DNA of 62,790 bases from NCBI GenBank assembly GCA_021432655.1, contig MU271180.1, positions 232,980 through 295,769 on the forward strand, given 5' to 3'. A program made the translations under genes and the position numbers. The notes below the pieces were generated by a model, which searched no databases, had not been told where the DNA came from, and saw nothing but the letters and a program-made list of their open reading frames with translations. Position 1 is the stretch's first letter. Each line of letters opens with the position of its first letter. Shown piece after piece: positions 19,968-51,993 of this stretch. The DNA comes from Atractiella rhizophila (taxonomy: Eukaryota).

Positions 19968-20439
19968 AGTTGATCTCTTGCATATGGATTCCTATTGTTG
20001 ATTGCGAACCCATGAAGTAATAAATATACCATTTCAACAAGCTTAGAAATTTCAAGCTATGTATGACGTGATCAGAACCTCAGCAAAGCCCACCAGACAG
20101 AGAGCAGCCTATCAGGTACATATCAGACCGATTTAGGGCCTGATCAGTCTCTGCTCAAGCAGTGCCAGCCGTCAGTATCCATCAGGCGGTGATCAGTGAG
20201 AAAGGATTTTCGTGATGTGCCCGTACCCTGAGGCAGCAGAAAACGGAATGATGAAAGTCGTTCCCGCAGGAATAGAGCGTGCTGGAGGCCAAGCTGTAAA
20301 GGAGAGAAGAGGGCGACGTTCCACCGATGGCAGGATATCAGGATATCATGTTGTTCGATCTTTCGAGTCAAATGACTGGGACAGCGCACCACGTAATATT
20401 AATCATCCAGTCTCCTGCTTTGACTCATCTCTCCTCTAG

Positions 20440-23008
20440 ATGACGAAGAGGAAGACAAAGAAGACTGCAATGAAGAGAGGATCCCCGCCACCACCTGCCA
20501 CTCCCGACTCGATTCAAAACACAAAGCAAAAATATCAACAAGAGGCAACATCAAGAACGGTACCACCAAACTTCAAACCGTTGCAGCGCAACCTGCCACT
20601 AGGTGAAAAACTCGACATGGAATCACCCGTTGTGGTGTTGGAGGATCTACGGCCAAACATTAACATACCTGAGGTCGAACTGCCACTCGAGCTAACAACG
20701 TATAATGCAGCGGACTGGAAGGATGAGAACTCGATTAAAACTTGGATGGATGAGCTGTATCGCGTGAGTAATCACAGTTGATTGAGCACCATGAATGAAG
20801 ACACGGTCTAGGTCGTGCGCAAGGAAAAGTCCAGATACTGCCAAGGTGGTACACGAATGCAGTTGTCAGAGAATCTGTCGACCAAGGATTCTTCAAAGCT
20901 GGACGGAATCTTGGTCCACCATGAGATCGACCCTCCTGTGAAGGCGTACTCGAACATATCGCTGGCATTAGAATTCAGAGACCATCTTGAGAATGCTGGT
21001 TCGCACGAGAACACCCAATTAGCACGAAACGCTGCCTACACTCTCGGGGCGAGACCTCGCTGTTTTGTCTGGACTCTGTTGATTGATACAGCTGGAGATA
21101 AACATTACTCTTGGGTTAATAGTATGCGTGGTGGGCACTTTCAGGGAAAACCAAAACGCCTCGAAGACCATTTCAAAGAAGTCGCGCAGACCATCGCAAG
21201 GTTTGCGAAAGCGAGCGAGGAACAAATCGGATTTCTCAACATCTTTGATCACGATCCAGCGTGGCACTTCACCTGGGAGGTAGGCTGTCGGTCTCGAACT
21301 GAGGAGCCCGCCTCCAAAAACTCTTCCCTCTCAAGTTCCCGCGCCAGGCCACCCAACGACACCATGCCTTCAGCTGAGCTACCGTCCTCATCTGACAGCA
21401 TGCCGTCTTCCAATATGCTCCTTCCTTCGCAATTCATCCCAAGCCCAATCACAAATTTAAACTGGACCTAAACGGATGTTTGAAGGGATGGGATGTTGTC
21501 GGCAAGAGTTCCGAGTTTAAGCCCAACTGGGTCCAGGAAATTCTTTTTCGTTCATACTCTATTGCTGGTAGAGGAACACAAGTTTGGATATGCGAGCTGG
21601 AAGGAGGTGGGTATGGTGTCATTAAGCATGTATGGCTGACGGAGGACGTGTTGAAAAGGTTGGAGGAGCACGTAAAGCAGTTCAATGTTTGGAGGGAGCT
21701 TTGGAAGGACCAACCGCCACGAAATCTCGATGGATCGCCAGCAGATGCGACGGATTTGGAATGGCTTCGACACACTCCTCGTCTCATTCTTTCTCAGCCT
21801 AATCTTTCAACCAGAAAAATCCTGTCCAAAAATGCACTCTGGAATGGTGGCGATGTTTCGGAGGTCATGGAGACAGACCTAATTCCCGTCCTCATCTACA
21901 ATTCTACGGCCGGCCTCCCTCTTTCTTCAGCTGAACGTCTTGACGATGTGCTCGACGCGTTCAAAGGTGTCTTGACGCGTACGGACTTTCTTGTTGTTTT
22001 GGGGCTTACCTTGATTTGTTGTCAGAATTAGCCATGTTAAACGATCACGACCTTATCCATCGCGATGTTTCCTATGCCAACATCTTTATTCGCGAATTCC
22101 AGACGAACAGTGATGACGGGAATGCTCCAGCTGTCGGATGGCTGAATGATTTCGATTTCTCGATACGACGGGAGAAGGACAAGGGCGAACACCCTTCAAA
22201 GCCACATCCAATCTCAGTGAGTAGCTTGCCCTCGCCTGCATAGGCTTATTCTTGACCTTTCATTAAGGGAACCTTCCCATTCCTATCTCGATGCGTACTG
22301 AACGCGTTGACGGAAGAAGAGCCTCCGTACGAGCAGTCGGTTATGGATGACATCGAGTCCGTAATCTACTGCGTTATCTACTTTTTCTGCAATTTCTATC
22401 CGGACGCTGAAGGACGGCTCGTGAGGCGAGATTGGAGCCGCAAGCCGGACACACCAACAGGAGAAGGCTCTGGAAGGACCTTCAGTGGTTCCAGGGACCT
22501 GGAACAGAATGCCGAGGCGGATGAACGATGCTCGTCACATCACAGCGTCAAATCCGTGAAGGAACGATCCTCACCCCTCCACGGCGCCAAATCTGCAAAG
22601 GATCGATACTCGACACTTCGGAACATCATATCCGCAAAGGAAAAATCCTCACCAATTCACAGCGTTGAATCCGTTCCCCAGAACATTGACTATCCACTCC
22701 AACCGTGGTTGACTTTGGATAGTGCCTTCGACGCGAAATTAGTTCTGCTCAGCAAGTTGAAGTTGTCACGTTTTGCCAAAAATTTGAGGAAACATCTGGT
22801 CAACGATGGGAGTTGGAACGAAGACCACGTCACACGTCTACTCTGGGAACTCACTCAACCGCTTCAATTTCTGCCGGGAGAGGAGGAGAATAATTGGGCT
22901 GCCCTCTTTCCCGATGGATGCGACGAAAAAACAGTAGTTAAGGGCATTGTTGGAAAGATGGTGGACGCTTTGGAGCGGGGAAAGAAGAGATTTAATGGGA
23001 AACTGTAA
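20440..23008 (+). CDS. FunK1-type protein kinase, copy B; one homopolymer frameshift at ~21445
   Basis: GRGTQVW, HRDVSYAN, GWLNDFDFS, DDIESVIY; same intron positions as copy A. Confidence 0.85.
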
Positions 23009-23982
23009 GTTGCCTTCGTCTCCATCAGCTGAACGAGGTATAACGTCCACACCAGTGATCCCTCTGAAGAGTTCGACTTTGAACCTGCCTCGTAAGAGAT
23101 CAGTGGCATCCCAAAACAGGGCTTTGCGTTGGTTTTTTCCCATGCGGTTGTTTCCCAATGCACTTGCAGAATTGGAGTCTTGCGACATTGCTTACATTTA
23201 ACTGCATGATGTAAAAATACAGTCTTTCAATTTTATATACATTTCCCTCTTTCAAGTAAGCTCCTCCGTTCGCACACTTCCGCGAATGTTCACCCTCGAT
23301 ACTCATATGGATAATTTGAATGTCGTGCGGCTTAAGTGAGTGAGAAGGGCAGGACACATGCTTTCTCGGAAGGAAAGACGCACTCCTGTCGTAAAGTTAG
23401 CCAACAAGGAAGGGCAGAGGAAGGGCTGATAACAGCGGAAGTCACCACCTACATATCTTGCTTCTGTTTGATCACATTTTGTTCCTGCCTTTCGTTCCGA
23501 CGGTTCATTATCGCAAGAAATGGGTGCCTGAACGAGTCCTCAATCGGTGCGGGCCGCCACACGCGAATAACACCTAGGAGTTTGAGCAATTGTGGAGGGT
23601 CGGAAGCACACCAAACTACTGTGCTCACTGCACTACGATAAGGAGTGGAAGATCCCAAGTTCCCTGGAATCCCAGCGATCAATATTGTTGGCCATTCATT
23701 CAGGATTCGCCCCACGACTGATCGCTTCCACCTTCACGCGATTCGGTGCCCCAAATAGCACACTAGGTGCGAGGTGACGTCCGAGAGCTGTCGTGGGTGC
23801 CGCCATTGGAGCCATATAAAAGGACGATTTGAGCTTGCGTTGCGGCTGGTTCATACTCGTCACTGATTCTGACTGAATACGACTCGGAAGACAAAGCCAG
23901 AATAAGTAAGTCTTCTGCACCATGCCATGATTGATCAAAAGAGAAGAGAGGATCGACCTTTCTCCTGATCCCGATCACAGGA

Positions 23983-24326
23983 ATGAAACTCGCCCTCCCC
24001 GTCGCCTTCCTCTCCCTCTTCGCCTCCATCGCGCTCTCCTCTCCCACTCCGGAACCGATCCTGTCGCCCGAAGAGGCTGCAAGGCTGTTGAATCCTCGTT
24101 CGTGCTGCGGGTGCGATCTTCTCTCTTTCTTTTCTTGGTTGGAGGGATGCCGTATTGACTCCTTTCTGGTGGCGGCAGGGAACTGCCTTACACTTGGTAA
24201 GTCGACTGCACTCGTTCACTTGGTGGAGCTTGAGAAGAGCTGGAGGAGAAGAAGAGTTTGAACTGACTTTTGATGGTCGATGGATGGTGATGGTACAGCT
24301 GCATCGTTGGATCTTGCTGCGGTTAA
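23983..24326 (+). CDS. Small secreted cysteine-rich prepropeptide, 57 aa, copy 2 (exons 23983-24110, 24179-24196, 24299-24326)
   Basis: Protein identical to copy 1; splice sites conserved; four synonymous exon differences. Confidence 0.8.
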
Positions 24327-25353
24327 GCGACGGTGTTTGTTGTGGCTGATGGATTTGGAGGATAGCGAGAGTCGTAAAACTCGTTGTCTACGCCTTGCCT
24401 TCATGGCAGATACACAAAGCACCTAGCTCGTTGTGCTTGTTGACCCAATTTCATCGCGTTTTGCAACATTCATTAAGCGCAGGATGTGTGGATGGATAGA
24501 CTCAGATGGATTGACACGACTGACACGACTGATCGATAGCGTGCCAGGAACAACTTTGACAAACCTGAAAAATCTGATACAAGAGAAATATTCCAGGACC
24601 AGTTCATCCATCGCAATGTCTCGCTTGAATCTTTTGAATTTCTGGAAGGTGAGAGAAAATGCACATAGATTCGTCCTCTCCATTCATAGCATAAACACGC
24701 AACCTGGACATAAGTTATATCAAGCATATCCTCATTACTAGATAGCAGTCACCCTTCACTCAAACCTTCATTCAAAATACTTTCTCAAAAGGACCGCATC
24801 TCATGTCAAAATTATAACATGAAGACGATATACATCTAGCGCCATTTCACCCTCTGCCTGATTTGATTCAGAAAGCGCCTCCAATACTGTCAATTATCAT
24901 CGAAATCATCCTTCATTCACCGTTCTCATCTGAACTGACCAGCGACCTATCCAATATTGAATGCAATAATCCCATTTCCAACTTCATCCCAGGACATGCA
25001 TACCTTGCTTCAAGTTCAACTTTTCTCACATTATGTTGTTTCGATTGGGAGTGGGTATGTTTCGAGAAGACTGAAAGAAGAGCCGCACGGATCTCAGATT
25101 GCTGCCGACGAGTTGCCGGTGGGTAACATCTTCTTCTTGGTCCCCTATCACAACTCTTCTTCCGAGTCTCCTTGCTGCGTCTTAATCGTACGGATTCGAT
25201 TGCTGATCAGCGAAGTGATCGCTCTCACGTAGGCGAAGAGCTAGGCAAGGCAGCCTGTTAGGGAGAGAAGGCTTGGGTAGGTAATCACTCAGTACTATAC
25301 TCCTTCTCAGCGCAAAGGATATCGATAAAGGGTTCTCCATATCTATATCCACA

Positions 25354-27327
25354 ATGGCCAAACCAAAACACCCGCCCACCGAGCTCTCCCTCTTCTGGGA
25401 TCCAGCCTCCCGGCAGCTCTCCTTCTCCCCTCCCTCCTCCTCTCCTCCCTCTCCGCCGTCCTCTCCCCCGCCCACACGGCCCCGCGGCACCTCCACACCG
25501 GTGCACGCCGTCGTCTCCTCTCTCACCCACACCGGGGGCAGTCCGCGGCCTGCTCCGGCCGTGGCACCTTCTTCGGGTCACACGCCTGCGAGTGGAGGAG
25601 GAGGAGGAGGAGCGAGCACGCCAAGTAGGCCGAGGACGGTCGCGCCTCTCCCCTCGAGTGCTTCGAGACCGCGCACCGCTGGCGCTCAAGCTTCGTCGTC
25701 CACCTCCAACCTCACGCGACACGGCGCGTCCGCCTCCACCCCGTCTGCCGTCCTTCCTTCGACCTCTACTGCCACCACCACTCCCGCCACCGCCACTAGC
25801 ACCACCAGCGCCATTATTAGTAGTAATAACAATAATACGAACGCTCAGCCCAACCCTACACTCTCAACGCAGCGTCCCCTCCACCTAGGTAGCGCGCTCG
25901 GTCTCACGCCCACCACCCCAAGCCCAAGCGCAGGAACGGGTCTACACGTCCCTCTCCCCCTCCCTCCCTCCGACCCTTCCCCACAACACCCTTCTCTCGG
26001 GACTGGCGCGTTCGGTGGCAGTCGTGTGTTCGACGGCGCCAGTATGGGCATGGGCATGGGTATGGGAGGGAGTGGATTCGGCCTTTTGGGAGGATTAGGA
26101 GGAGCAGGAGGCGGACTTTCGAGCTATCTTTATGAGCAGGGCTTGCTGAAGGGAGGGATGAGCGATTTGGAGGTTAGAGTGTGGCCGTGGGGGAGGGGAT
26201 ATCGGTTCGTCTTCCTGTTCCTTCACACTCTCTCCTCTAGTTCTCTGTATTTCTTTGGTGCGAAATTGAGAGAGCCTTGTTTTGGGATTGGGGTTGTGTG
26301 GAATGTTGGGTTTGGGGATGTGAGATCGGTTCTGGCGCGTTTGAGCTGGAGAACGAGTTCAGCCACTTGACCCAAAGTTCGAAGAGTGGACTGGGACCGA
26401 ATGGCGCGTCAAAGCGACCTTAGTCAAATGGACATGGAAATGGAAGGCAAAGTAATGAGTGATTTTTCAAAGTGGTTGCCCCGTTCATACCTTTCTGTCT
26501 GCGCGGAGAAGGAAAGCGTGATCGTGGATTGTTGACGCGTCGCGCCGTTTCACCGCGCTGGACCTCAGGTACACAACGCAGTGGGCACAGCGTTGAGTGA
26601 TTCGGGGCAGAGATAGATTTGGATCTGTTCTACTTCGCTGAAAAAGATTTGGATTTATATGGCGTCTTGGAGTAAGCGATGTCCCATAAAGTGCGAGTTG
26701 GATTTGATTCTCGTGAATTTTCACGATGTTCTTTGTGATTTCGCTTCTCGATTTCTTTCGAGAGTCTAAAGCGCTACTGGTGCCCTGTATGTTGTATATG
26801 CGATTATATCTGTCCTTTTCTCATTCTAAATACAGATCACAGGGCTGGCGCGACTCTATGTATCTACTTTGACCTCCAGTGTTCTGTCCGCACAAGTATC
26901 GTGCAGACTCGAGGTCACGAATGTCGTGGCAGTTCACCAGCTTTAAACCTGGTGTCATGATGGATGATATCCCTCTCACTTATGAGGCAGACGTCTGACG
27001 TGAGTATATTTGTGTGAACAGGGTGCATCGTCTTGTGCTTGGACAATCCGAATTCTTCGCGAGCATGCTACAAGGCGGGTGGAGAGAATCAGGAGCGCGC
27101 GGTCGCCAACCAGGATTTCGATCTCGCGCTGACGTGAAAGGCAAAGGCAAAGCGCGGACGCGCTCTCGAGCTTCATCAGTCTCTTCCAACTCTTCAGCCA
27201 CCTCCTCCAAGGCGTCCGTCCATCCCAACGTCCCAGAAGACGACTCGTCCTTCCTCACCCTCCACTTCGAAGGTCCGGCCAGTCATCAAATCACACGCGC
27301 GGCGTTCGAGTACTGTCTCGGACACCT
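25354..27327 (+). CDS. BTB/POZ-domain protein of a conserved fungal family, 5' part, cut by the assembly gap (intron 26205-27021)
   Basis: Spliced YLYEQGLLKGGMSDLEVRVWPWGRGYRVHRLVLGQSEFFASML..ITRAAFEYCLGHL; the remainder is recoverable from the mirror block. Confidence 0.8.
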
Positions 27328-27352
27328 NNNNNNNNNNNNNNNNNNNNNNNNN
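27328..27352. other. Assembly gap, 25 N
   Basis: Run of 25 N. Confidence 1.
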
Positions 27353-28300
27353 TCGTTCCTAAACGTCTTCTTTCTGCTTGTTTTGATTTATTCGTATTGT
27401 TTACTACTTGAAGAGTCTACTGGGGGTACTGTTAACACGTGGAGTCCCTTAGGGTGAAAGGTGGACGTGTTGTAGTCGTAACCTATAAGCCCAGCAGAGT
27501 GAATGGCCGTGGCCGTGGCTCCATAAGAAGTGAAGAGTTCGAACACGAGAAGGTAGGGGTCGAAACACTTTGTCGCTTACTTAGCCCTGGTCTGCGTTTG
27601 ACCCACTCACGGCACGGAGGTAAAGGACAGTCAGCTGTTTCTGTTGTGTCTCTTCTTTCTGGTATGGGTTATTCAAAGACCGTCTACTACTGAGTCTTCT
27701 GTTCTGTCCTATCGTAAAGAAGACAGCTGTGTCCACTTGGTGCTAACGTGTAGCTCTACCTACCTCTAGCAGTGGAGTTTTCGCGAGAGAAGAGGGCTAG
27801 GCCTTAGGTCAGCTGGCTCTCCTACGTTCCGTCGAGCGTGAAGGGCCAGCACTTCGACCGGCGCTAGCAGGGAGAAGCAAAGCCGCTACCTCTATATGGA
27901 TAAGTGAGGCACTCCTGCCTAGTACTTCCCTCTTCCTTCGCATGTGTTCGACTTCAACGAAGTGAGCAAGCTGAACTTCCACTCTGGAACTGTTCGAAGG
28001 CCTCATATGCTTTCAAACCTTCTTTCGAGACAATGAGGAAACGACGAATGTGGTGTCTTGACGTGTCTCTTAGCCATTCCGAGTATGCGTGAGCAAGGAA
28101 GGAAGCTCAATTTGCTTGACACACCAGTTATTTCAACTTGCTAATACCGCCAGCTATTCCTCTTCTATCGCCTGTCGCGGTCGCCCTTCCCTGAGCCCCT
28201 ACTCCATTACGCTGCTCCGACAGTACCGCCTCCTCTCCTTCGCTCTTCAGTCTTTCTGAGCAACAGTAATCATGCGGGTTGAGGTAGCGCTTCGTGTAGT
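27353..28300. other. Reversed-but-not-complemented copy of the BTB gene 3' end (mirror sequence, probable artefact)
   Basis: Reading the + strand backwards gives AYEPYRFSVQF..VYLHRR..TALTQFASGPDSFAVSQSWGWKSTSLRSEEYL..SLRCTIVMGVI* with GT-AG introns; stop at 27416-27414. Confidence 0.85.
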
Positions 28301-28573
28301 ATGGCGTCTCCAACTTATGTGTCCGTGGTACTTCGTGAAGCTTTGCAGAACTGTGGTTCTAGCTATAGGAAGCTTTGGTCGAAAACTTTTTGGTTTTTAG
28401 AGTATGTGAGTTTATAAGCGTCCTACAGGTCACTTAGCTCGTCGCTTACTTAGACTTGCTAACTTTAGAAAACGGTCCTTGTGAAAGTCGGTAGGTCTCT
28501 CTTATAGCGTCCTGTAGAATAATTGCAGGCCTACCGGTCAATATCCGTGTATCTAGCATGTGCTATAAGTTGT

Positions 28574-31500
28574 TATTTGTGCAGTTGACCTGTATTCAAT
28601 ATAGTTCGTATAGGAGTAGTGATCTATCGTCAGTGGGAGGAGTGGAAGTAAGTTTTATGAAAGAGTTTTCCTGGCGTAGAGTGCAGTTTTAATATTGTAC
28701 TTCTGCTATATGTAGATCGCGGTAAAGTGGGAGACGGACTAAACTAAGTCTTTCGCGGAGGTTATGACAGTTAATAGTAGCTTTAGTAGGAAGTAAGTGG
28801 CAAGAGTGGACTTGACTGGTCGCTGGATAGGTTATAACTTACGTTATTAGGGTAAAGGTTGAAGTAGGGTCCTGTACGTATGGAACGAAGTTCAAGTTGA
28901 AAAGAGTGTAATACAACAAAGCTAACCCTCACCCATACAAAGCTCTTCTGACTTTCTTCTCGGCGTGCCTAGAGTCTAACGACGGCTGCTCAACGGCCAC
29001 CCATTGTAGTAGAAGAACCAGGGGATAGTGTTGAGAAGAAGGCTCAGAGGAACGACGCAGAAATTAGCCTGCCTAAGCTAACGACTAGTCGCTTCACTAG
29101 CGAGAGTGCATCTGCTTCTCGATCCGTTCCGTCGGACAATCCCTCTCTTCCGAACCCATCCATTATTGAGTCGTGATATGAGGAAGAGTCGCGTTTCCTA
29201 TAGCTATTTCCCAAGAGGTTTAGATATAGGTGTTACCGGTTTGGTTTTGTGGGCGGGTGGCTCGAGAGGGAGAAGACCCTGGGTCGGAGGGCCGTCGAGA
29301 GGAAGAGGGGAGGGAGGAGGAGAGGAGGGAGAGGCGGCAGGAGAGGGGCGGGTGTGCCGGGGCGCCGTGGAGGTGTGGCCACGTGCGGCAGCATAGGAGA
29401 GAGTGGGTGTGGCCCCCGTCAGGCGCCGGACGAGGCCGGCACCGTGGAAGAAGCCCAGTGTGCGGACGTTCACCTCCTCCTCCTCCTCCTCGCTCGTGCG
29501 GTTCATCCGGCTCCTGCCAGCGCGGAGAGGGGAGCTCACGAAGCTCTGGCGCGTGGCGACCGCGAGTTCGAAGCAGCAGGTGGAGGTTGGAGTGCGCTGT
29601 GCCGCGCAGGCGGAGGTGGGGCAGACGGCAGGAAGGAAGCTGGAGATGACGGTGCTGGTGATGGCGGTGGCGGTGATCGTGGTGGTCGCGGTAATAATCA
29701 TCATTATTGTTATTATGCTTGCGAGTCGGGTTGGGATGTGAGAGTTGCGTCGCAGGGGAGGTGGATCCATCGCGCGAGCCAGAGTGCGGGTGGTGGGGTT
29801 CGGGTTCGCGTCCTTGCCCAGATGTGCAGGGAGAGGGGGAGGGAGGGAGGCTGGGAAGGGGTGTTGTGGGAAGAGAGCCCTGACCGCGCAAGCCACCGTC
29901 AGCACACAAGCTGCCGCGGTCATACCCGTACCCGTACCCATACCCTTCCTCACCTAAGCCGGAGGACCCTCCTAATCCTCCTCGTCCTCCGCCTGAAAGC
30001 TCGATAGAAATACTCGTCCCGAACGACTTCCCTCCCTACTCGCTAGACCTCCAATCTCACACCGGCACCCCCTCCCCTATAGCCAAGCAGCAAGGACAAG
30101 GAAGTGTGAGTGAGGAGATCAAGAGAGATAAAGAAACCACGCTTTAACTCTCTCGGAACAAAACCCTAACCCCAACACACCTTACAACCCAAACCCCTAC
30201 ACTCTAGCCAAGACCGCGCAAACTCGACCTCTTGCTCAAGTCGGTGAACTGGGTTTCAAGCTTCTCACCTGACCCTGGCTTACCGCGCAGTTTCGCTGGA
30301 ATCAGTTTACCTGTACCTTTACCTTCCGTTTCATTACTCACTAAAAAGTTTCACCAACGGGGCAAGTATGGAAAGACAGACGCGCCTCTTCCTTTCGCAC
30401 TAGCACCTAACAACTGCGCAGCGCGGCAAAGTGGCGCGACCTGGAGTCCATGTGTTGCGTCACCCGTGTCGCAACTCACTAAGCCCCGTCTCTATCTAAA
30501 CCTAGACAAGATGAAGCGACTTTTTCTAAACCTAAATATACCGCAGAACCTCATTCGCTACAGGGTATTTCACGCTCAACCTAAACTAAGAGCACTTAAA
30601 AGTGCTACAAGAAAAACTAAAGCGAAGAGCTAAAGAAAGCTCTCAGATTTCGCGATGACCACGGGACATACAACATATACGCTAATATAGACAGGAAAAG
30701 AGTAAGATTTATGTCTAGTGTCCCGACCGCGCTGAGATACATAGATGAAACTGGAGGTCACAAGACAGGCGTGTTCATAGCACGTCTGAGCTCCAGTGCT
30801 TACAGCACCGTCAAGTGGTCGAAAATTTGGACCACAGTACTACCTACTATAGGGAGAGTGAATACTCCGTCTGCAGACTGCACTCATATAAACACACTTG
30901 TCCCACGTAGCAGAACACGAACCCGTTAGGCTTAAGAAGCGCTCGTACGATGTTCCGCCCACCTCTCTTAGTCCTCGCGCGCCAGCGGTTGGTCCTAAAG
31001 CTAGAGCGCGACTGCACTTTCCGTTTCCGTTTCGCGCCTGCGCGAGAGCTCGAAGTAGTCAGAGAAGGTTGAGAAGTCGGTGGAGGAGGTTCCGCAGGCA
31101 GGTAGGGTTGCAGGGTCTTCTGCTGAGCAGGAAGGAGTGGGAGGTGAAGCTTCCAGGCCGGTCAGTAGTTTAGTGTGCGCGCCGCAAGCTCATGACAGAG
31201 CCTGTGGAAATACCAGTAGGAGGGAGCAACAACGAGGGAATAACCCGATCCTGAGTTGGTGAGCGACCTTGTGGCGAACCTGGCCGAAAAGTACGTAACC
31301 GTCTGCAGTCCCTAAGGCTCGTGCTACTCAACGAATGGGACCTGCTTACCCACGTTGGACTGCCTAGTCCAGGAGTAGGGCGCTGAGGAGTCAAGGAGGA
31401 AAAGAGAAGAGCGATGGCGCTGAATGGAGAGCTATGGCGGAGACCAGGTCTCGCACTACCGATACTATGTCTTGTCGTAGTGGGGAAAGTGATAGGAGTG

Positions 31501-32520
31501 AATAGAGTCCAAGAGCGAACCGGTTCCCCAATGTCCGACCAGCCCCTTTTCTTCTTTCTCTTAGTCCTACGGCACCGGAACTTCCTCAGCCATCAACCGA
31601 AGGGTTGTTGCAAGAGCTAGGATGGCGCAGGTAGAGAAGGCCTCGACCGCTAAAGAAAATGCCGGGTTAAGTTCTTTCCCACCCTCTTAGCACGCGCACG
31701 ACCAACCGTTTTACCCCATCGCTGTAGGAAGGCTAGCTTCTCGTCGAAGTTCTAGGCGATAGCGCGGAGTTAGTTCACGCTTGGTGCGCTTTGGAGGTAG
31801 TTATGGAGTGTGTAGGACAGATGCGCGCTACCGTCACAGACTTCGCGGGACTGGAGTCTCAAACCTCCTCGCCTCCCCAAGGGCGATCGACCTAAGCGCC
31901 ATAATAGTCGTCGCTGCGGAAGAAGTACTCATTGGAGCCACGACTGTGAAGGTGTTCGTTGTACCGTCCACCACCGCTTAAGCTAGCTATAAGACATCGT
32001 TTCTCTCACCAGCTGGAAGCAGCCTTTCTATCCGTTAATCCACAGCGCCTTCTAGCAAACCGACTTAGAGAACGCAGCTACCTATACAGGAGTAGATAGC
32101 TACCCCTTTTCAGAGCTCCGTAACTAAGACATCTGCCCTGCCTAAACGAACGTCTGCTTCTACTCCTCGCTCTTAAGTTTCGAGACAAGCGTCTACCCTA
32201 GATAATGAGCGTGAACTGCAAAGAAGTTAACCTCTTTTAGCCGTTTCTGTACACAGGATATTGACCGGTTGGCATGCAATTATTCCTTCAGGACGCCTTC
32301 CGAGATACCTACCGGCTTCTCAAGTTCCGTTTCTAAGGTTAGCGGGGTTTTACGTAAGCGACGAGCTAAGCTGCTACCTGTTGGTCTCTTCCTCCCTCTC
32401 CTACTCAACCCATAAAGCTTTTTAGATCAAAGCTTCCTCTCGCTGGAACCCCTATTTCTGCAAAAGCTTCACCAAGTACCACGGACACCTAAGTTGGAAT
32501 GCCATACACGGAAGGCGCAG
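28574..32520. other. Complemented-but-not-reversed copy of 24691-27327 plus the continuation of the BTB gene (probable artefact)
   Basis: Base-wise complement of 28574-31208 nearly equals 24691-27327 (offset ~3881). Past 31208 the complement reads GHLYGHPPSLLLPYWA..ATPQFLLSLLATATYLSIP..FFYGPIQERVGESCACWLAKWGSDILPIEE..WIRGIISSDAFF. Confidence 0.95.
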
Positions 32521-33215
32521 CCTCGACCGGCATGATTACTATTGCGTCCTTCTTTGTTGCATGTGCATTTGCTAGCAATAGGATTACTAATGACTTTACT
32601 CAGGCTTCTGTTTTCGTCCTCTTTGCAAGTCTGGTCATTCTTCTTATCGTACACTTTCAGCTAGATTTTTGTGGAATCTTCAATTGTACCGTTCCAACCA
32701 ACATGTCGTGCATTTAAGCACGAGTTGTCTGTTATGTTTCTTGAGGCGCATACGAATAACGACTTAGGCTCATTGGCACTGAAATAACTGACCAGACATC
32801 GTCGCAATTCAATTCTCCATCCTGGACGAGGTTGGGCAATATTGTTATCTCATCTATTAGGCTTCTGTCGTACCTTTCTCTCCTGCCACTTTGTGGAGTC
32901 AGTGTGGTTTCCTAAGTGGGACTGAGGGTACACGACGTATTCTAAGTAACCCGTCTAACTTAAGGTGCTTGTGAGGGAATGTTAATGAGGCAGCTTGCGT
33001 GCTGGGCCAAAATTCAAAATAAGACTGTATTTCTGCAAAATGCAATTGAATACAGGCGATGTGTGCAAGGCTGCATGTGCACTCGAAAAGAACCACAGGG
33101 ATGCAAAGTCCTGTTTGGGATGTAGCTGCGCTATTAGCATGGCTAAAGGCCGACCTCTTCAGAGGGATCACTAGTGGACGTTATACCTCGTTCAACTGAT
33201 GGAGACGAAGGCAAC

Positions 33216-35800
33216 TTACAGTTTCCCATTAAATCTCTTCTTTCCCCGCTCCAAAGCTTCCACCATCTTTCCAACAATGTCCTTAACTACTGCTTTTTCG
33301 TCGCATCCATCGGGAAAGAGCGGACGCCAATAAATGCCGTTTACAATATCTTCCGACTGAAGTTGAAGTGGCCGAGTGAGTTCCCACAGTAGACGTGTGA
33401 TGTGATCTTGGTTCCAACGCCCATCGTCGACCAGATGTTCGCTCAGAAGATGGGTAAAAGCTGGTAAATCCGTTGGTTTGTTGAGCAGTAGTAATTTCTC
33501 GCTAAAGGCACTTCTCAGAGTCAACCACGGTCGGAGTGGATAGTCAATGTTCTGCGGAACGGATTCAACGCTGTGAATTGTTGAGGATTGTTCCTTTGCG
33601 GATTTAGCGCTCTGAAGTGTCGAGGATCGATCCTTTGCAGATTTGGCGCTATGAAGCGTTGAGGATCGTTGCTTCGCCGATTTGGCGCTCTGCTGTGCGG
33701 AGGATTGTTCATTCCCCTTGACATTCTGTTCCAGGTTCTTGGAACCACTGAAGGTCCTTCCAGACCCTTCTCCTGTTGGTGTGTCTAGCTTGCGACTCCA
33801 ATCTCGCCTCACGAGCCGTCCTGTAGCGTCCGGATAGAAATTGCAGAAAAAGTAGATACAGCAGTAGATAACTGACTCGATGTCATCCATAAGCGACTGC
33901 TCGTACGAAGCCCCTTTCTTCTTCAACGCCTTCAGTACGCATCGAGACAGGAATAGGAAGGTCCCCTGAATGAAGGGTCAAAGAACAAACATCCAGGGCG
34001 AGGGCAAGCTGCTCACGGAAAGTGGATGTGGCTTTGAAGCATGTTTGCCCCTGTTCTTCTCGCGTCGTATCGATAAGTCGAAATCATTCAGCCACCCGAC
34101 AGCTGGAGCATTCCCGTCATCACTGTTCGTCTGGAACTCGCGAATAAAGATGTTGGCATAGGAAACATCTCGATGGATAAAGTCGTGATCGTTCCACATG
34201 GCTAATTCTGTTAACACGTCAAGGCAAGCCCAAAAACAACAAGAAAGTCCGTACGCGTCAAGACACCTTTGAACGCGTCGAGCACATCGTCAAGACGTTT
34301 AGCTGAAGCAAGAGGGAGGCTGGCCGTAGAGTGGTAGGTGAGGACGGGAATTAGGTCTGTCTCCATGACCTCCGAAACATCGCCGTCATTCCAGAGAGCA
34401 TTTTTGGACAGGATTTTTTATGGTTGAAAGATTAGGCTGAGAAAGAATGAGACGAGGAGCGTGTCGAAGCCATTCCAAATCCGTCGCATCCGCTGGCGAT
34501 CCATCGAGCTTTCGTGGCGGTTGGTCCTTCCAAAGCTCCTCCAAACATTGAACTGCTTTACGTGCACCTCCAACCTTTTCAACACGTCCTCCGTCAGCCA
34601 TACATGCTTAATGACACCATACCCACCTCCTTCCAGCTCGCATATCCAAACCTGCGTTCCTCTGCCGGTAATGGAATATGAACGAAATAGAATTTCCTGG
34701 ACCCAGTTGGGCTTGAACTCGGAACCCTTGCCGACAACATCCCATCCCTTCAAACATCCGTTTAGGTCCAGTTTAAATTTCTGATTGGGGCTTGGGATGA
34801 ATTGGGAAGGAAGGAGCATAGTGGAAGACGGCATGCTGTCAGATGAGGATGTTAGCTCAGCTGAAGGCATGGTGTCGTTGGGTGGCCTGGCGCGCGGGAA
34901 CTTGAGAGGGAAGAGTTTTTGGAGGCGGGCTCCTCAGTTCGAGACCGACTGCCTACCTCCCAGGTGAAGTGCCACGCTGGATCGTGATCAAAGATGTTGA
35001 GAAATCCGATTTGTTCCTCGCTCGCTTTCGCAAACCTTGCGATGGTCTGCGCGACTTCTTTGAAATGGTCCTCGAGGCGTTTTGGTTTTCCCTGAAAGTG
35101 CCCACCACGCATACTATTAACCCAAGAGAAATGTTTATCTCCAGCTGTATCAATTAACAGAGTCCAGACAAAACAGCGAGGTCTCGCCCCGAGAGTGTAG
35201 GCAGCGTTTCGTGCTAATTGGGTGTTCTCGTGCGAACCAGCATTCTCAAGATAGTCTCTGAATTCTAATGCCAGCGATATGTTCGAGTACGCCTTCACAG
35301 GAGGGTCGATCTCATGGTGGACCAAGATTCCGTCCAGCTCTGAAGAATCCTTGGTCGACAGATTCTCTGACAACTGCATTCGTGCACCACCTTGGCAATA
35401 TCTGGACTTTTCCTTGCGCACGACCTGGAGCACCGTGTCTTCATTCATGGCGCTCAATCAACTGTGAATCACTCACACGATACAGCTCGTCCATCCAAGT
35501 TTTAATCCAGTCCTCATCCTTCCAGTCCGCGGCACTATACGTCGTTAGCTCGGGTGGCAGTTCGACCTCAGGTATGTCTATGTTTGGCCGTAGATCCTCC
35601 AACACCACAACGGGTGATTCCAAGTCGAGTTTTTCACCTAGTGGCAGGTTGTGCTGCAATGGTTTGAAGTTTGGTGGTGCCGTTCTTGACTTTGCCTCTT
35701 GTTGACATTTTGACTTTATGTTTTGAATCGAGTCGGGAGTGGCAGGTGGTGGCGGGGATCCTCTCTTCATTGCAGTCTTCTTTGTCTTCCTCTTCGTCAT
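33216..35800 (-). CDS. FunK1-type protein kinase, copy C; several homopolymer frameshifts
   Basis: GRGTQVW, HRDVSYAN, GWLNDFDLS, DDIESVIY; inverted paralog of copy B including its upstream region. Confidence 0.85.
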
Positions 35801-36164
35801 CTAGAGGAGAGATGAGTCAAATGCAGGAGACTGGATGATTAATATTACGATGTGCGCTGTCCCAGTCATTTGACTCGAAACATCGAACACCATGATATCC
35901 TGCCATCAATGAAACGTCACCCTCTTCTCTCCTTTACAGGTTAGCCTCCAGCACGCTCTATTCCTGTGGGAACGACTTTCATCATTCCGTTTTCTGCTGC
36001 CTCAGGGTACAGGCAATTTGCGACATAACTCCACTTCGCGACTCATCAGGTTTAGCATGATGGCGTACTGTTCACACTCGGGACCATCGAGACGGAGGAA
36101 ATGTTGTGATGAACAAACGAGAATGAATGAGACAAAAAGTCACAACACGCATTCCAAACTCATC

Positions 36165-37427: not shown

Positions 37428-37597
37428 GCAGGTTGCGCTGCAATGGTCTGAAGTTTACGGGCATCTTTCTTGGCGGCTCCTTGTTAATATTCTGGCTTTG
37501 CGACGCGACGGTAGAAACAAGTGGTGCCTGGATCGTATCCTCTTCAATTTTGTTGCCTTCAGATCAGATGGAATGAAATGACTTGGTCCGAACTTCT
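37428..37597 (-). pseudogene. Remnant of a kinase 5' end, homologous to ~48422-48641
   Basis: gcaggttgcgctgcaatggtctgaagtttac and gaaatgacttggtccgaacttct are shared with the 5' end of copy E; interrupted by the LTR at 37598. Confidence 0.75.
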
Positions 37598-38022
37598 TGT
37601 CAGGTTTGCATCTTACGCAAATCGGCGCCCGTTCGCCGGATTGCGTCTCCTATCGCCCATTTGCGTTCCCTGCTAATCGGCGCCCGTCGCCACTGCGTCT
37701 CCCGTCGCCTATTTACACGCAGTGCAAAACGGCGCCCGTTCGCCCGTTCTCCCGTTCTCCCGTTCGCCCATTAGCACCTACATCACCACTTAGCCCAATT
37801 GTGCCTATCCTCCTCTCATTAACTCCGCGTAATCCCACTGTCACTTCCCTTTTAGTTCTCTTACAGGTTTCATCTGCTCTCCTCTACACTCTGTGGCAGT
37901 GTTATTCCGCTTGTATATATAGATCAGAGAGTAGTGGAGGTGACCTTAGAGTATTCTCTTAGGTTTATCTCCACTACAGACGCATCGCCCGTCGGCGACC
38001 GCACATAGTGTCAGCCGTAACA
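37598..38022 (+). mobile_element. Solo LTR without matching TSD
   Basis: TGTCAGG...CGTAACA; TATATATA box; expanded cgcccgtt repeats; flanks CTTCT/ACACA. Confidence 0.85.
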
Positions 38023-38062
38023 ACACATTACAAACCAGCTGCAACTGAGACATTGAGTGAAG

Positions 38063-38411
38063 CGTTAGGGCTGACACTATGTGCGGTCGCCGATAGGCGA
38101 TGCGTCTGTAGTGGAGATAAACCTAAGAGCATGATATGACATGAAGACTAACCTGTAGTGGAGATAAACCTAAGAGAATACTCTAAGGTCACCTCCACTA
38201 CTCTCTGATCTATATATACAAGCGGAATAACACTGCCACAAAGCGTAGAGGAGAGCAGATGAAACATGTAAGAGAACTAAAAAGGAAGTGACAGTGGGAG
38301 TATGTGGAGTTAATAAGAGGAGGATAGGCACAATTGGGCTAAGTGGTGATGTAGGTGCAAATGGGCGAACGGGCGAACGGGCGCCGATTTGCGTAAGATG
38401 CAAACCTGACA
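38063..38411 (-). mobile_element. Solo LTR with 5-bp TSD TGAAG
   Basis: TGAAG at 38058-62 and 38412-16; reads CGTTAGG...CCTGACA with the terminal base mutated. Confidence 0.92.
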
Positions 38412-38951
38412 TGAAGCTGTCAATGTTGCCTTGTTGTATGAGGTGGTATTTTACGTGCTGATTATGGAAATGTGCTGATAACTTGAGGGAAAAGGATTTC
38501 AATTCACTGGCTCAGTATGATCCTCAGCTGGCCGCTACATCTGTAGATGTTACATGCAGCATTGAGAATCTGGTCAATACCTTCACCTTCATCCATACCA
38601 AACCTGATCCGTTGTGGTACAAGGTCAATGGAAAGCCGGTTATGAAGAAAATTGAGGTACCACTACCAATGCGACAAGAAAGTGCCGGATGCTGTTGAGA
38701 GGAGTTTCCATCAGTGTGCAATGGACATTTCCGCAGTCCCAGGTAAGTACTTAGTTCTCAATCTGCTCATGCAGCTCACATGAACATCAGCACACACGGC
38801 CAACATATCGAACGTAGCTTCTCAGATGGCAGATGGAGGGGAAATTGCCTCTTTTCTCCGCCTTTCAATGAAAGACAAGACTTTCCGCTCTGAGACCATG
38901 TTAAGATTGTGGCACAAGCAGGGCATCCTCCCAGTTTGCCTGGGCTTATAG
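38412..38951 (+). pseudogene. 3' fragment of an older hAT-like transposase (dimerisation region), possibly continuing at 42941-43020
   Basis: PDPLWYKVNG..EEFPSV..SERSFSDG motifs; interrupted by the younger hAT element. Confidence 0.5.
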
Positions 38952-39324: not shown

Positions 39325-42300
39325 ATGACCAAGACCCACCGACATCTACCCCTCCTCCCACACAACCAGCTGCTATGGCGACTTTGACCCCAGTGCGGCA
39401 TTCTTCAAGGCCCAATCTTGGGACAAGCCCTATGGATCGTTCGATTTACACAGAGGATTCTCCTCCCTTGCCTCACCGTGTTTCTCTATCACTTTCAACA
39501 CCTAGTCACAACTCCTCTCCGACCTCAAGGCATTCTGCAACTCGAAGGATTCCTTCTCAGGTTAGTCCCAAATCTCATTGACTTCGAGCTTGTTGGTGAA
39601 TTGTGGGTATAGAATGTCCAAGGAAGTAGTGGGTCACCACTGATTCTAAGTGATTTGGAGCATTCCGTTACACAGATACCAGTTAAGGAAGCAGTATGTT
39701 CTCATGTCATATCTGATTTCAGTGTCTTATTCAATCAGCTATCGCCGTGGATTCCAAAGCGCTCTACCCTTGCTGCTAGGAGAGAGGCGCTCCAACCACA
39801 GCTGAAGAAGAAAGTAGGTTTTTGTTCATTGATTTCTTAGAGTTTCAAGTTAATTGATGGACGTGTAGAATGATACCTCAGCAGCAAAGAAGGACAAGAG
39901 AAAGCGTCGGCAGCCTCATACAGAGGAGGATGAATCTGAGGAGGAACTAGTGGCAGGCAACAAAATTGTATGTTTTTCTTTTTTCAGCAAATCCACATCA
40001 TACTAATATATAACCCTGTGAGAAGCAGACTGCGGTCAAGCTACCGAAGGGGAAGAGTTGGATGGAAGTGCACACAAGATTGAACAAGATTTCTGCCCCA
40101 GTGTTAGGGCGGACACTATGTGCGGTCGCCGATAGGCGATGCGTCTGTAGTGGAGATAAACCTAAGAGCATGATATGACATGAAGACTAACCTGTAGTGG
40201 AGATAAACCTAAGAGAATACTCTAAGGTCACCTCCACTACTCTCTGATCTATATATACAAGCGGAATAACACTGCCACAAAGCGTAGAGGAGAGCAGATG
40301 AAACATGTAAGAGAACTAAAAAGGAAGTGACAGTGGGAGTATGTGGAGTTAATAAGAGGAGGATAGGCACAATTGGGCTAAGTGGTGAAGTAGGTGCAAA
40401 TGGGCGAACAGGCGCCGATTTGCGTAAGATGCAAACCTGACACCCAGATGATTCTGAGGATGAGGAACTGGAGCGGAAGAAACCAAAGACAGAAAGCCGG
40501 AGAAGCTATGGTAGTGGTCAACTACAAATACTAGATCTCTACAAGGTGCGCAGATTGTCAGGGTTATGTGGTGGAGTGACTGAGCGATGTTCCCGGTGTT
40601 TAGTGGGTTGGAGGAACCAAATGGGAGGATTCTACTGAAGACAAACCTGCTGAATTCACCTGCAGGCAATGTGGGTACATCGGGCCTGTTGCTCTGGAAG
40701 GTTCTCAGTTCCGAAACTAATATGCTCTGTAGAAAGAAACGGAGTATGTCCACAAAGAGGTACTCTAATTGCAATAGTCATCTGCATGACTACCAAAACT
40801 GACACCTTGCAATTCAAATTGTCGGTCATGATCCACCTCCTCTCCCTGCTTCAAAGGTCCCAAAATCAGCACCCGGAGATCCATCTACCTTCGAAACCTT
40901 CAAGCTAGTTCCAAAGAAAGAAGTTGACCGCTTCTTCCGGAAAATGGTTGAGTGGATTATTCGGAGAGATCATGCATGGACTGTTGTTGAAGAAAATGAG
41001 CTTGAGCAAGCTATCAAGCTCCTGAAGCTATTGATGAAACTATAAGGTTCCACGATGGCAAGAAAGTGGGCTAGAAGATTATATGATGCATTGAAGGAGC
41101 AGGTGCAGAAAGAGTTGGACGAATTGATGGTATTTTCTTTTACAATGTTAGTCATTAGCTCACTTGCCTTAAAGGAGGACGATAAAGTTCACCTTGAGAC
41201 TGACATCTGGACCAGCCTGGGACAGATGCACATGATCATGGGGACGATTGGGCATTTCATCGATCAAGACTGGAATCGAAAGCGAAGGGTCCTTCGAGCA
41301 ACAGTGTTTCAAGAGTCGCATACTGTGCCGATGTTGGCAAAGCAATTAACGAAAGTTATTACCAATCATAATCTTGTGAAGAAGTTTGGTTTGTTTTTAT
41401 TCCTTTGTTTCACTTTGTCCTGACAGTAGGGGCACAGGAAATATCACTGAAGATTCCTGCTCTGTCAATCTCACCTCACTTCCTTTCCTTTCCACCCAAT
41501 TAAAAGTACAGCACAAGACACTTTGGGACCCAGATGACAACCACTCTTGGTGTGCAGCCCATGTCGTCAACCTTGCAGCCCAAGATGCAATTGCTGCCGC
41601 TGGAGTTGGACCTTTGTCTGATGAGATTGATGTCTATATGCTTGATAAGCAGTTGGGGGTTCTCACGAAGATTGTGAGGAAGCAACAGAAAAGCCAAAGG
41701 AGAAGGGGAAGGGGAAGGATAAGGATAACTCTGAGAAGAAATCTTTGGAGAATGTGGCCTGGCTTGTGATGAGGAAGGCTGGTCTGAAGCTGAGTCTGGT
41801 GATTGGGATACAGAACAACCTCAGCCTCTGCTTGTACAGGCAACTGGCATAATCAAGCAGTAGAAATGGAGTGTACAGGATAAGGTACGTTATTTTGTTT
41901 CATCAGGCAGCTTGATTAACTAGTAACATAGATTGTCAAAATCTCAAAGGCCATTCGGCGGACACATGGACGACGGAAGGCATTCCTCAAGGTTTCACAG
42001 AAACATTCGAAGCCAAAGGATCAGAATCTTCTCCTGCTCAAGAACAATACGACACGCTGGAACTCTACAAATAAGACCCTCCAATGTGCTTTGAGATTGT
42101 GGAAGGTATGACATTGAGCTTGAGTATTGATCTACCCAGTTAACTGCGTATATACTCTCATTAGGCAATTCACCACTTTTGTGATCTACCCTGGAGAGCA
42201 TTCTACAAGTATTGTCCTACTGAAGAGGAATAGAAGGAAATTAGGACTATGTCAGAGGGCCTTACTGTTTGTTGTTTCCTTGTTATCATATTGTCTGCTA

Positions 42301-42780: not shown

Positions 42781-43865
42781 GTAATTTAGGCATTATAATG
42801 CTTAGAATCTAATGCAATTACAATTACGGTAAAGCGGGCAGTGGACAAAGTAATATTGATTAAATTATAAGCCCCAAGGAGCACATTATGCTTGCTCAAA
42901 TTACATGACATTACATTATAATGTAATGGTGGGAGCGCTCACTTTTCGGGATGTTGAAGGCTGGGAAAGACCAAAGAAGAAGCAAAAGACCAATGAGAAG
43001 GAAGTGATATCCCTATGAGACTTCAGAGAACATTTAAAATTCAAATTGCGTTTTATTTTAACCCTAATCAGCAGTCAATTACAGCCACATTTACGCAACT
43101 TTGTCACCTTTGATACACCTCACCATGGGCTCCCCGCCTCCTCGTACGATTCCTCGCCGGGGGTACGGGGTCCCCGTCGAAGGAGACAAGGAGGGATTGC
43201 AGTCTGGACTTGGGGGTCACAAAACCACACGGTTACCCCCGCTTCCCCCTGCGGTGGACAGTGTCGATACCTTAGCGGTGGAGATATCCCTCCATGTACA
43301 TATCCAGAAGACCTAGGCAAAAGATCAGAGTGGCAGGTCCCAGAGGACTCTTTCAGCCACCCATTTCTTGTGACAATGAACCGTCGGAACGAAAGGCAGG
43401 AACAAAATGTGATAAAACAGAAGCAAAATGTAGTGCTGTGACTTCCGCCGTTATTCAGCCTTCCTCTGACCTCCCTTTGTTAGCTAACTATACAACAGGA
43501 GTGTAGTTTTTCCGTCCGAGAAAGCGCGCCGTAGTCATTCATTCAAGATGGTCGACATTCAAATGATCCATATGAGTATGGACGGTGGACATTCTCGGAA
43601 GCGTGAATGGAGGAGCTTGCTTGAAAGAGGGAATGTATATAAATTGAAAGGCTGTATTTTTACATCATGCAGTTAAATGTAAGCAATGTGGCAGGACTCC
43701 AATTCTGCACGTGCATTGGGAAACAACCGCATGGGAAAAAACCAACACAAAGCCCTGTTTTGGGATGCCACCGTGCTCTTACAAGGTAGGGTCAAAGTCG
43801 AACTCTTCAGAGGGATCACTGGTGTGGACGTTATACCTCGTTCAACTGATGGAGACGAAGGCAAC

Positions 43866-46212
43866 TTACAGCTTCCCATTAAATCTCTTCTTTCCCCGCT
43901 CCAAAGCGTCCACCATCTTTCCAACAATGTCCTTAACTACTGCTTTTTCATCGCATCCATCGGGAAAGAGCGGACGCCAATAAATGCCGTTTTCAATATC
44001 TTCCAACTGAAGTTGAAGTGGCCGAGTGAGTTCCCATAGTAGACGTGTGACGTGATCATGGCTCCAACGCCCATCGTCGACCAGATGTTGCCTCAGACGG
44101 TACGTAAAAGCTGGTAAACTGGTCGGTTTGGAAGTGTTGAGAAGAAGTAATTTCTCGTTAAAGGCACTTTTCAAAGTCAACCACGATTGGAGTGGATAGT
44201 CATCGTTCAGTGGAACAAATTTGACGCTGTGTATTGTTGAGGATTGTTCCTTTGCGGATTTAGCGCTCTGAAGTGTTGAGGATCGATCCTTTGCAGATTT
44301 GGCGCTATGAAGCGTTGAGGATCGTTCCTTCGCCGATTTGACGCTCTGATGTGCCGAGGATCGTTCATTCGCCTCGGCATTCTGTTCCAGGTCTTTGGAA
44401 CCACTGAAGGTCCTTCCAGACCCTTCTCCTGTTGGTGTGTCCGGCTTGCGGCTCCAATCTCGCCTCACCATCCGTCTTTTCGTGTCCAGATAGAAATTGC
44501 AGAAAAAGTTGATAACGCAATAGATTACGGACTCGACGTCATCCATAACCGACTGCTCGTATGCAGCGTCCTTCGTCATCAACGCTCTCAGTACGCATCG
44601 AGATAAGTATTGGAAGGTGCCCTTCATGACGGTCAACGAATCATCCTATGAAGGCGAGTGGCAAGCAACTCACTGAAAGTGGATGTGGCTTTGAAGCATG
44701 TTTGCCCCTGTTCTTCTCCTTTCGTATCGAGAAGTCGAAATCATTCAGCCATCCCACTACTAGAGCATTCCCGCCACCCGTATCCGTCTGGAATTCGCGA
44801 ATAAAGATGTTGGCATAGGAAACATCTCGATGGATAAAATCGTGATCGTGTAATATGGCTAATTCTGTCAGGAAGTTAAGCAAGCCCAAAACAAAATGGG
44901 AGCACGCACGAGTTAAGACACCTTTGAACGCGTCGAGCACATCGTCAAGACATTTAGCTGAAGAAAGAGGGAAGCCGGCCGTGGAATGGTAAATGAGGAC
45001 GGGAATTAGGTCTGTCTCCATGACCTCCGAAACATCGCCGTCATTCCAGAGAGCATTTTTGGACAGGATTTGTATGGTTGAAAGATTAGGCTGAGAAAGA
45101 ATGAGACGAGGAGCGTGTCGAAGCCATTCCAAATCCGTCGCATCCGCTGGCGATCCATCGAGCTTTCGTGGCGGTTGGTCCTTCCAAAGCTCCCTCCAAC
45201 CATTGAACTGCTTTACGTGCTCCTGCAACCTTTCCAACACGTCCTCCGTCAGCCACACATGCTTAATGATACCATACCCTCCTCCATCCAGCTCGCATAT
45301 CCAAACCTGCGTTCCTCTGCCGGCAATAGAATATGAACGAAATAGAATTTCCTGGACCCAGTTCACCATGAACTCGGAGCCATTGCCAACGACATGCCAT
45401 CCGTTCAGACATCCGTTTAGGTCCAGTTTAAATTTATGATTGGGACTTGGAACGAATTGGTAAGGAAGAAGCATAGTGGACGACGGCGTGGTTGCAGATG
45501 AGGACGCTGGCTGGACTGAAGGCACGCGGACGCTAGGCGACCTGACGCGGGACCTTGAGTCGGAAGAGTAATTCGTGAAGCCTGGCTCCTCAGTTCGAGA
45601 ACAACTGCCTACCTCCCAGGTGAAGTGCCACGCTGGGTCGTGATCAAAGATGTTGAGAAATCCGATCTGTTCCTCGCTCGCTTTCGCAAACTGTGCGATG
45701 ATCTGTGCGACTTCTTTGAAGTGGTCTTCGAGGAGTTTTGGTTTTCCCTGAAAGTGCCCACCACGCATACTATTAACCCAAGAGTAATGATTATCTCCAG
45801 CCGTATCAATCAACAGAGTCCAGACAAAACAGCGAGGTCTCGCCCCGAGAGTGTAAGCGGCGTTTCGTGCTAGTTGTGTGTTCCCATCCGAAGCAGCACA
45901 CTGAAGTTCGTCTCTGAATTCTAATGCCAGCGATATGTTCGAGTACGCCTTAACAGGAGGGTTGATCTCATGGTGGACCAGGATTCCGTTTGAAGAATCC
46001 CTGTTCGATGGATTCTCTGATAATTGCATTGCTGGATCACCTTTGCTGTATCTGGACTTTTCCTTGCGCGCGACCTGGAGCACCGCGACTTCATTCATGG
46101 TGCTCAGTCAACTGTGAATTACGCACGCGATACAGCTCGTCCATCCAAGTTTTAATCGAGTTCTCATCCTTCCAATCCGCTGCGTTATACGTCGTTACCT
46201 CGGGTGACAGTA
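43866..46212 (-). CDS. FunK1-type kinase unit D (core plus C-terminus, lacks N-terminus)
   Basis: Uninterrupted 485-aa ORF with GRGTQVW, HRDVSYAN, GWLNDFDFS; last exon ends GKKRFNGKL*. Confidence 0.85.
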
Positions 46213-48500: not shown

Positions 48501-49638
48501 ACGCGACGTTACAGGAGAAACAAGTGGTGCCTGAATGCTACCTTCAAGTTTTGTTGTCTTCCGATCAGGTGTGATGAAATGATTGTTGTGATCATATTAA
48601 CGAGCAGATTGATGGGATGAAATGACTTGGTCCGAACTTCTCGATCACGATGCTGCCATCATCTGAAGACACCTGGCCATCCAACGTGAGTACTAGTCAG
48701 TGATCACCCTGGCTTTCATTCCTGTCGCCAACTCCTCTAGCACGAGCATCAGTTGTCTCGCTCCTGGCAATGTCGAAATCATTCACACTGAATTGCAACT
48801 TGGTGTTCACTTTCCTTCCTGCTCTCAGACCTTCTTCTTGCACCAAATTCTCAAAGACGATAGGTTTATCTCCATCGAAAACCGCAGCGGACCCTCCGCG
48901 ACCGGTTTCAGCACCTACCACCGCCAGCTCCTATGACATCTCAGCCACACTACACTCGCCATCGACAGAAGAGACGCCGCTTTTGGACAAAGATCTCCAC
49001 CCTCCACCCTCAAGCTCGGACCTCTGTTCCTTGCTTACTTTGACAGACAGAAAGTCATCCGAGAAGGCTCTCTCGCACGTCCAATACTGATAATTGGTGG
49101 CGGGTAGTGGGATTCTCTGGGATCGCCTGTTATGAGATCTGACAAGATTTTATATCTCACGTTTTGTTCTAGTGTTCGTGCTCCATTTGCAGAATTCTTT
49201 TGTTGCATAAGAACTCTCCAGCAATTTCATTACTAAACGCATCTCCAGGCCTTTGTTCTCGTCTATTTTCGTATCTTGCACATCCCTCGAGCTTTGTGCT
49301 ATCTCGACAACCCCATTCCAACCAACGCACCACCAAGGATATCCTCATCTGTTCTGTTCCCGGGGGTCACCAGTGCCTCGGAACAACTACCGAACAGTGC
49401 TGACTTTCGCACGCAAGCAACCGAGCTTCTAACTCTTGTACAAAGCAACTTACCTCGGCTCCTGCTGGCTCACAGTACACTTCAGCCGTGCAGAAGCCCT
49501 TCAGCGCCGTGGGAGTTGCAGGGGACGTTAACCGCTGGTTACCTCGTGTCCATTCGTTAAAAAGGAGAATGAGAACTGGCATCATGATAACTAGCCCGAC
49601 TCCACAATTTTCAGCGTACCACAGATCAGCGATCCGAG

Positions 49639-51752: not shown

Positions 51753-51993
51753 CGAGACTCGATACAGAACTTATCTCTTCAATGAGAAGTGTAGTTAGAT
51801 GCCAATGATTATTTAGTTCAATGCATTTTTGCTAACGTTAAAGAGACAAACAACACGGTTTTGAGCACTTGAATCTCCAAGTGCGAGTACTATTTAAAAA
51901 AGTTATGCTTACTCTTCCCGATTTTTTGATGCCGTGAATCCGCCCGTCCATTTCATCCACAATAATTTATTAGGCGCCTGTAGGACACACATA

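Follow-up and report, generated by a model that had tools for sequence, protein, structure and literature searches.

A complemented but unreversed block beside an assembly gap in Atractiella rhizophila, best read as an orientation error in gap filling

In a 62,790-nucleotide stretch of Atractiella rhizophila contig MU271180.1 (assembly GCA_021432655.1), hereafter the window, the sequence on the right side of an assembly gap reads as a base-wise, same-direction complement of the sequence on its left side. This arrangement raises the question of whether such mirror-written DNA is present in the chromosome or was generated during assembly, and, in the latter case, which sequence of the organism is hidden in it.

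Comparing the window by BLAST with its own unreversed complement (E<=1e-5), we observed a single pair of complement/mirror matches in the window, listed once per direction, namely 28546-31208 and 24661-27327. The base-wise complement of the former aligned to the latter in the same direction with 98.35% identity over 2670 columns (E=0; 34 mismatches and 7 gap openings), confirming the relationship to the region before the gap proposed in the initial annotation, and this alignment displays a systematic A↔T, C↔G exchange in the block. In normal orientation, the block showed no long match besides its own internal 300-base inverted pair, and it can be mapped to real sequence only once complemented or reversed.

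For the detection of mirror-written sequence along the window, a third-order Markov log-odds score was trained on the sequence outside 20000-36100; per 100 bases, it amounted to +2.7 +/- 1.7 in 40 normal windows kept out of the training and to -2.6 +/- 2.1 in 20 block windows. The maximal mirror-scoring segment (27291-32491) adjoins the only N run of the window, a spacer of 25 N at 27328-27352, and reached a score of 136, the next best segment in the window scoring 9.9, indicating that a word-frequency log-odds scan detects blocks of this kind. The mirror zone begins at the spacer and comprises 5193 bases, from 27353 to about 32545. It had initially been placed between 28574 and 33150; its beginning lies at the gap, about 1.2 kb further left, and its end at about 32545, with 32546-33150 being normally oriented, such that the block exceeds the size first given.

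The normally written sequence preceding the spacer (24691-27327, + strand; allele A) contains the 5' half of a fungal gene, as indicated by its ORFs, the position of the ATG and the match of a protein record over 27010-27327. The start codon is the ATG at 25354, we infer that the first coding exon ends at about 26205, and a later exon runs from about 27022 into the gap (open frame 27020-27327). When decoded, the mirror-written sequence from 31209 onwards carries on this open frame across the gap. The longest ORF of 31209-32545 measures 312 aa decoded versus 128 aa as written, and several frame switches, attributable to indels, interrupt the decoded reading; the count of intron motifs was non-discriminating (3 written versus 3 decoded).

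Independent evidence for this junction was provided by KAH8920208.1 (P0001), an NCBI hypothetical protein of A. rhizophila (119-aa gene model) and the sole match from a search of 1.84 billion representatives. It matches the window at 27010-27327 and then decoded 31209-31247, its last 13 residues being found only at decoded 31209 and in none of the six written frames. The record thus runs from 27327 straight into decoded 31209, and therefore implies that unmirrored DNA joins there. Because its source implies two indels, the record must derive from a sequence other than the window; it also carries the allele-A base at 27043. Although it covers only 13 residues past the junction, this protein record is the best outside evidence that 27327 is joined to the decoded block. 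KAH8920208.1 itself is an off-frame fragment and not a full-length protein (its source implies a -1/+1 indel pair), which means that the public annotation of the gene is faulty as well. Its first four residues match 26679-26690, directly followed by a splice-donor-like GT. Searches for further relatives gave no longer homologue of exon 27020-27325 among 192 candidates, no homologue of exon 1 among 8000, and no full-length relative among 569 pattern matches in metagenome contigs, none of which was confirmed.

The segment 31209 to about 32520 had initially been read as the part of a BTB gene missing at the gap. The frame continuity and the tail of KAH8920208.1 bear out the missing gene sequence, whereas the BTB label is without Pfam support: no BTB match (PF00651; E up to 10) was obtained for exons 27020-27325 and 26116-26205 scanned separately, and no BTB structure was present among 14 weak PDB matches. 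For the 102-aa exon, BTB clusters ranked second and third among the Atlas matches, with a score of 0.89, which is below the lead threshold of 0.9. The decoded text bears some resemblance to fungal BTB proteins.

The clean part of the block (28576-31208) is mirror-written and probably represents a second allele of 24691-27327. Over 24700-27327, allele A and the decoded block differ by 22 substitutions and 10 gap columns. In the decoded frame, eight of the ten coding substitutions leave the amino acid unchanged, compared to an expected fraction of 0.25-0.33 (binomial p 0.0004-0.003), in a sample of 10 sites only. For the nine exon-1 changes, synonymous codons in the six written frames amounted to 3/8, 0/8, 2/9, 2/8, 1/8 and 5/9, one written frame thus reaching 5/9. 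This synonymous excess suggests a second allele rather than the plain copy initially assumed, and, within the limits of this small sample, the mirroring probably took place only after the sequence had evolved as an ordinary gene. The initial annotation was also right in noting indels in the decoded text; besides the frame switches further downstream, the clean part contains four single-base indels, of which three lie in homopolymer runs. They look like long-read consensus errors, and the homopolymer indels fit an unpolished long-read consensus. In a word search of sequencing runs with 24750-27320, three of the 18 runs listed share 0.72, 0.66 and 0.62 of the words, values near the share of 0.75 between allele A and the decoded block, although they carry no weight in our interpretation.

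The surroundings of the gap are rich in repeats. Copies of a FunK1-type kinase repeat, at least five at 86-90% identity, occur in both orientations (1701-5949, 20218-24695, 33021-36015 and 43343-48499), with Pkinase_fungal (Pfam) matched on ORFs of related copies, and these copies are a likely cause of assembly trouble. One copy of this 4.3-kb local family with fungal protein kinase sequence, R1 (20440-24695, +), ends where the unique gene region begins and is 89% identical to 1701-5949 and, inverted, 90% identical to 33021-36015. The latter copy, R2 (33021-36015, -; 90% to 23226-20218), is a probable false anchor for R1 reads. It is continued by a 500-base inverted repeat of 87% identity (12575-13060/36013-36512). 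In addition, the 3' part of the gene has two paralogous pieces in the window, a degenerate one at 214-865 (-), which served as in-window reference (tblastx to decoded 32313-32433, E=0.007), and a second 3'-end piece with flank at 48712-49326 (+; 81%, inverted, to 328-571); each of them adjoins the left end of a repeat copy.

Further features of the window were observed alongside. A head-to-tail duplicate of 2127 bases (44085-46211/46213-48339) differs by 25 substitutions and no gaps, both of its 488-aa ORFs match Pkinase_fungal, and 3 of the 11 changed codons are synonymous; it reflects either a tandem duplication of recent date or two haplotypes placed one after the other. The near-palindromic element at 37593-38416 (37751-38381 self-inverted), with partial copies at 40100-40442 and 9646-9835, looks like a non-autonomous transposon, and a 354-aa ORF at 51898-52962 (+) matches cytochrome c/c1 heme lyase (PF01265, E=1.7e-22).

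The left part of the mirror zone (27353-28575) has a composition of its own, being a mirror-written mosaic whose parents, according to alignments and shuffle scores, are the end of R1 (about 23600-24690) and the 3' end of the gene. Its complement aligns to 23876-24636 (63%) and to the degenerate paralogous piece at 214-748 (62%). For the complement of 27353-28260, alignment to the R1 end gave a score of 200 (shuffle maximum 52) and alignment to the paralogous 3' piece within the window a score of 182 (shuffle maximum 44); between these two references, the score was 32. At base level, 328 of 351 positions within 28250-28600 match decoded 32200-32560 and/or the inverted R1 end (165 both parents, 110 the first only, 53 the second only, 23 neither). 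The first parent leaves 76 positions unexplained, of which 53 agree with the second (0.70; 200 control trials: mean 0.11, maximum 0.58). The two parents are unrelated, as decoded 32200-32560 scored 33 against the inverted R1 end and random controls reached up to 59. The blend signal exceeds controls at about 27640-28575, and 27353-27652 matches the repeat end at chance level only. A blend restricted to 315 bases was considered and dropped, as the alignments carry it further left; likewise, the garbled blend initially assigned to 28300-28570 is a blend of two sequences, but of larger extent. We know of no cellular process which mixes two loci at base level, and such a mixture is what a consensus program yields from two read sets.

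At the right edge, the initial annotation had described a garbled blend from about 32550 to 33150. This description fits 32831-33150 (+), a normally oriented, graded transition into the repeat and a probable consensus blend (likeness to the repeat 0.63 versus a control maximum of 0.57), in which the number of matches per 100 columns to other repeat copies climbs from about 35 to above 90, the other copies matching each other at 71-95. It does not fit 32546-32830 (+), which has no repeat likeness (30 versus 44, chance level). Here, 32550-32702 resembles the flank behind the second paralogous piece (49195-49326; 63%, score 60 versus a shuffle maximum of 44), which suggests that 32546-32830 is probably the true 3' flank of the gene.

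How these segments are placed relative to each other became apparent when the block was read backwards. Together with the sequence from 32546 onwards, it is then collinear with the left locus in inverted orientation (24973 to 22633), the alignment scoring 1146 (30 controls: mean 642, maximum 722; 722 with 27353-28575 left as written). In this forced alignment, 28260-27653 and 32831-33150 clearly exceed the controls, 28575-28261 does not leave the control range, and 27652-27353 and 32546-32830 score no better than chance, while unforced local alignments extrapolate to a meeting point at about 23590-23700. The local matches were not recovered in an end-free global alignment to 48401-50300, and local alignments are accordingly the basis for linking the 3' end of the gene to 32546 and beyond.

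Taken together, these results indicate that the block is almost certainly an assembly artefact, in which a long-read gap-extension consensus was inserted reversed but uncomplemented, and is not DNA of the organism. The independent record, the substitutions favouring the decoded frame and the two-parent mosaic all support the orientation bug in gap filling proposed at the outset; it remains the best reading, and the most fitting description of the error is that the left extension of the right contig (27353-32545) was reversed without being complemented. We propose the following model. In the real locus, 27327 would continue into decoded 31209-32545, as the independent record indicates, and then presumably into the gene's 3' end and 32546 onwards. 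A gap filler would have used R2-anchored reads to extend the right contig to the left. Because this contig begins with R2, which is 90% like R1, it may have gathered R1 reads besides those of the true flank, the former leading, inverted, via the R1 end into the gene. Overlap of the two read sets would have given rise to the blend observed at about 27640-28575 and probably to that at 32831-33150; past this overlap, only R1-derived reads would be left, yielding the clean, probable second allele. Finally, the 5193-base extension, whose position behind the 25-N spacer is directly apparent, would have been written reversed and uncomplemented through a code error. The interval 32831-33150, blended yet unmirrored, is not accounted for by this gap-extension model.

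PBJelly, which writes exactly 25 N into overfilled gaps, is a candidate tool, its fit being limited to the 25-base default and the extension behaviour. PBJelly extends flanks, leaves Ns and makes overfilled gaps (PMC3504050), a minimum gap of 25 is the default in a PBSuite utility (PMC6240028), and the reported mean fill identity of PBJelly is 88-95% (PMC8848313). The clean part of the block is 98% accurate and thus above this range, suggesting that corrected reads or another tool may be involved. A literature search, with few subscription journals covered, retrieved no description of a reverse-without-complement bug in a gap filler, and the accessible portions of PMC6191289, PMC7872254 and PMC3640096 contain nothing bearing on the artefact.

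These observations also bear on a different origin of the same error, namely that the block was introduced after assembly, by hand or by a custom script applying reversal or complementation alone to a contig patch. The 98% accuracy of the clean part and the lack of a published gap-filler bug in our search would fit such a patch, and a different strain could account for the ~1% allelic difference. The mosaic and the geometry anchored on the repeats, however, argue for an automated read consensus, and we regard an origin by hand or script as rather unlikely. As it changes only who made the error, it is counted within the artefact verdict.

Within the preferred reading, the decoded block might alternatively stem from a recent paralogous duplicate elsewhere in the genome and not from the second allele of the locus. 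The window is rich in local duplicates of 86-99% identity, and pieces of the gene's 3' part are present twice more in it. Against this stand the low divergence (only 22 substitutions in about 2630 bases), the traces of the same upstream repeat end carried by the block, and the absence of a second 5' half within the window. A paralogous source therefore appears improbable.

To our knowledge, no polymerase copies in parallel orientation. The view that the block exists in the chromosome as written, through complement-without-reversal copying by a polymerase or repair process not known so far ('swinger' DNA, parallel-strand synthesis), has a precedent in the proposal of one author, whose examples include a 16S rRNA gene within the record of an insect mitogenome (PMC4942731), but we consider it negligible, since the block starts exactly at the N spacer, contains a base-level mosaic of two unrelated loci, carries substitutions favouring the decoded frame and is contradicted by the normal arrangement in KAH8920208.1, since the A↔T + C↔G rule equals a half-done reverse complement, and since, as far as the same source shows, only one exchange rule is found in DNA and the author alone reads records so. 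A rebuttal of the mitogenome case was not found in our literature search.

The artefact has direct consequences for users of this assembly. The ORFs of the block in its written form are biologically meaningless, and yet the assembly offers spurious ORFs of 250-270 aa; Pfam returned nothing for three long mirror ORFs. As to the concern that such ORFs may contaminate protein databases, none of 11 was found in partial look-ups that did not extend to spliced models or to the 5' parts of long ORFs: an exact look-up, which covered 10 of the 16 listed ORFs, retrieved none of the ten ATG-started ORFs, and one further ORF, 29342-29941 (-), had no match among 642 candidates; one ORF of the exact look-up set, 32499-32717, lies mostly past the mirror edge. 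Conversely, the assembly conceals about 1.3 kb of clean gene sequence and a blended 3' end from six-frame searches. The block contains no new biology, and its value is one of quality control. If it reflects a recurring software fault, other assemblies would hold such blocks, and published 'swinger DNA' records would have a mundane explanation.

In comparison with known systems, the block shares with PBJelly-type artefacts the one-sided extension by a residual N run, the surplus sequence and the indel-bearing consensus, and differs from them in its reversed, uncomplemented output, which the accessible parts of the respective reports (PMC3504050, PMC8848313) do not describe, and in an accuracy above their reported mean. 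The gene hidden in the block may be akin to fungal BTB/POZ-domain proteins (PF00651), to which the Atlas clusters (0.89, below the lead threshold) point, and it differs from them in that its separately scanned exons gave no Pfam match. Finally, the 'swinger' A↔T + C↔G DNA of Seligmann (PMC4942731) represents the same string transformation, likewise surrounded by sequence that is normal. It was interpreted there as a biological phenomenon, whereas the block described here is accompanied by an N spacer, a consensus mosaic and an independent normal record, making it a worked case against 'swinger DNA'.
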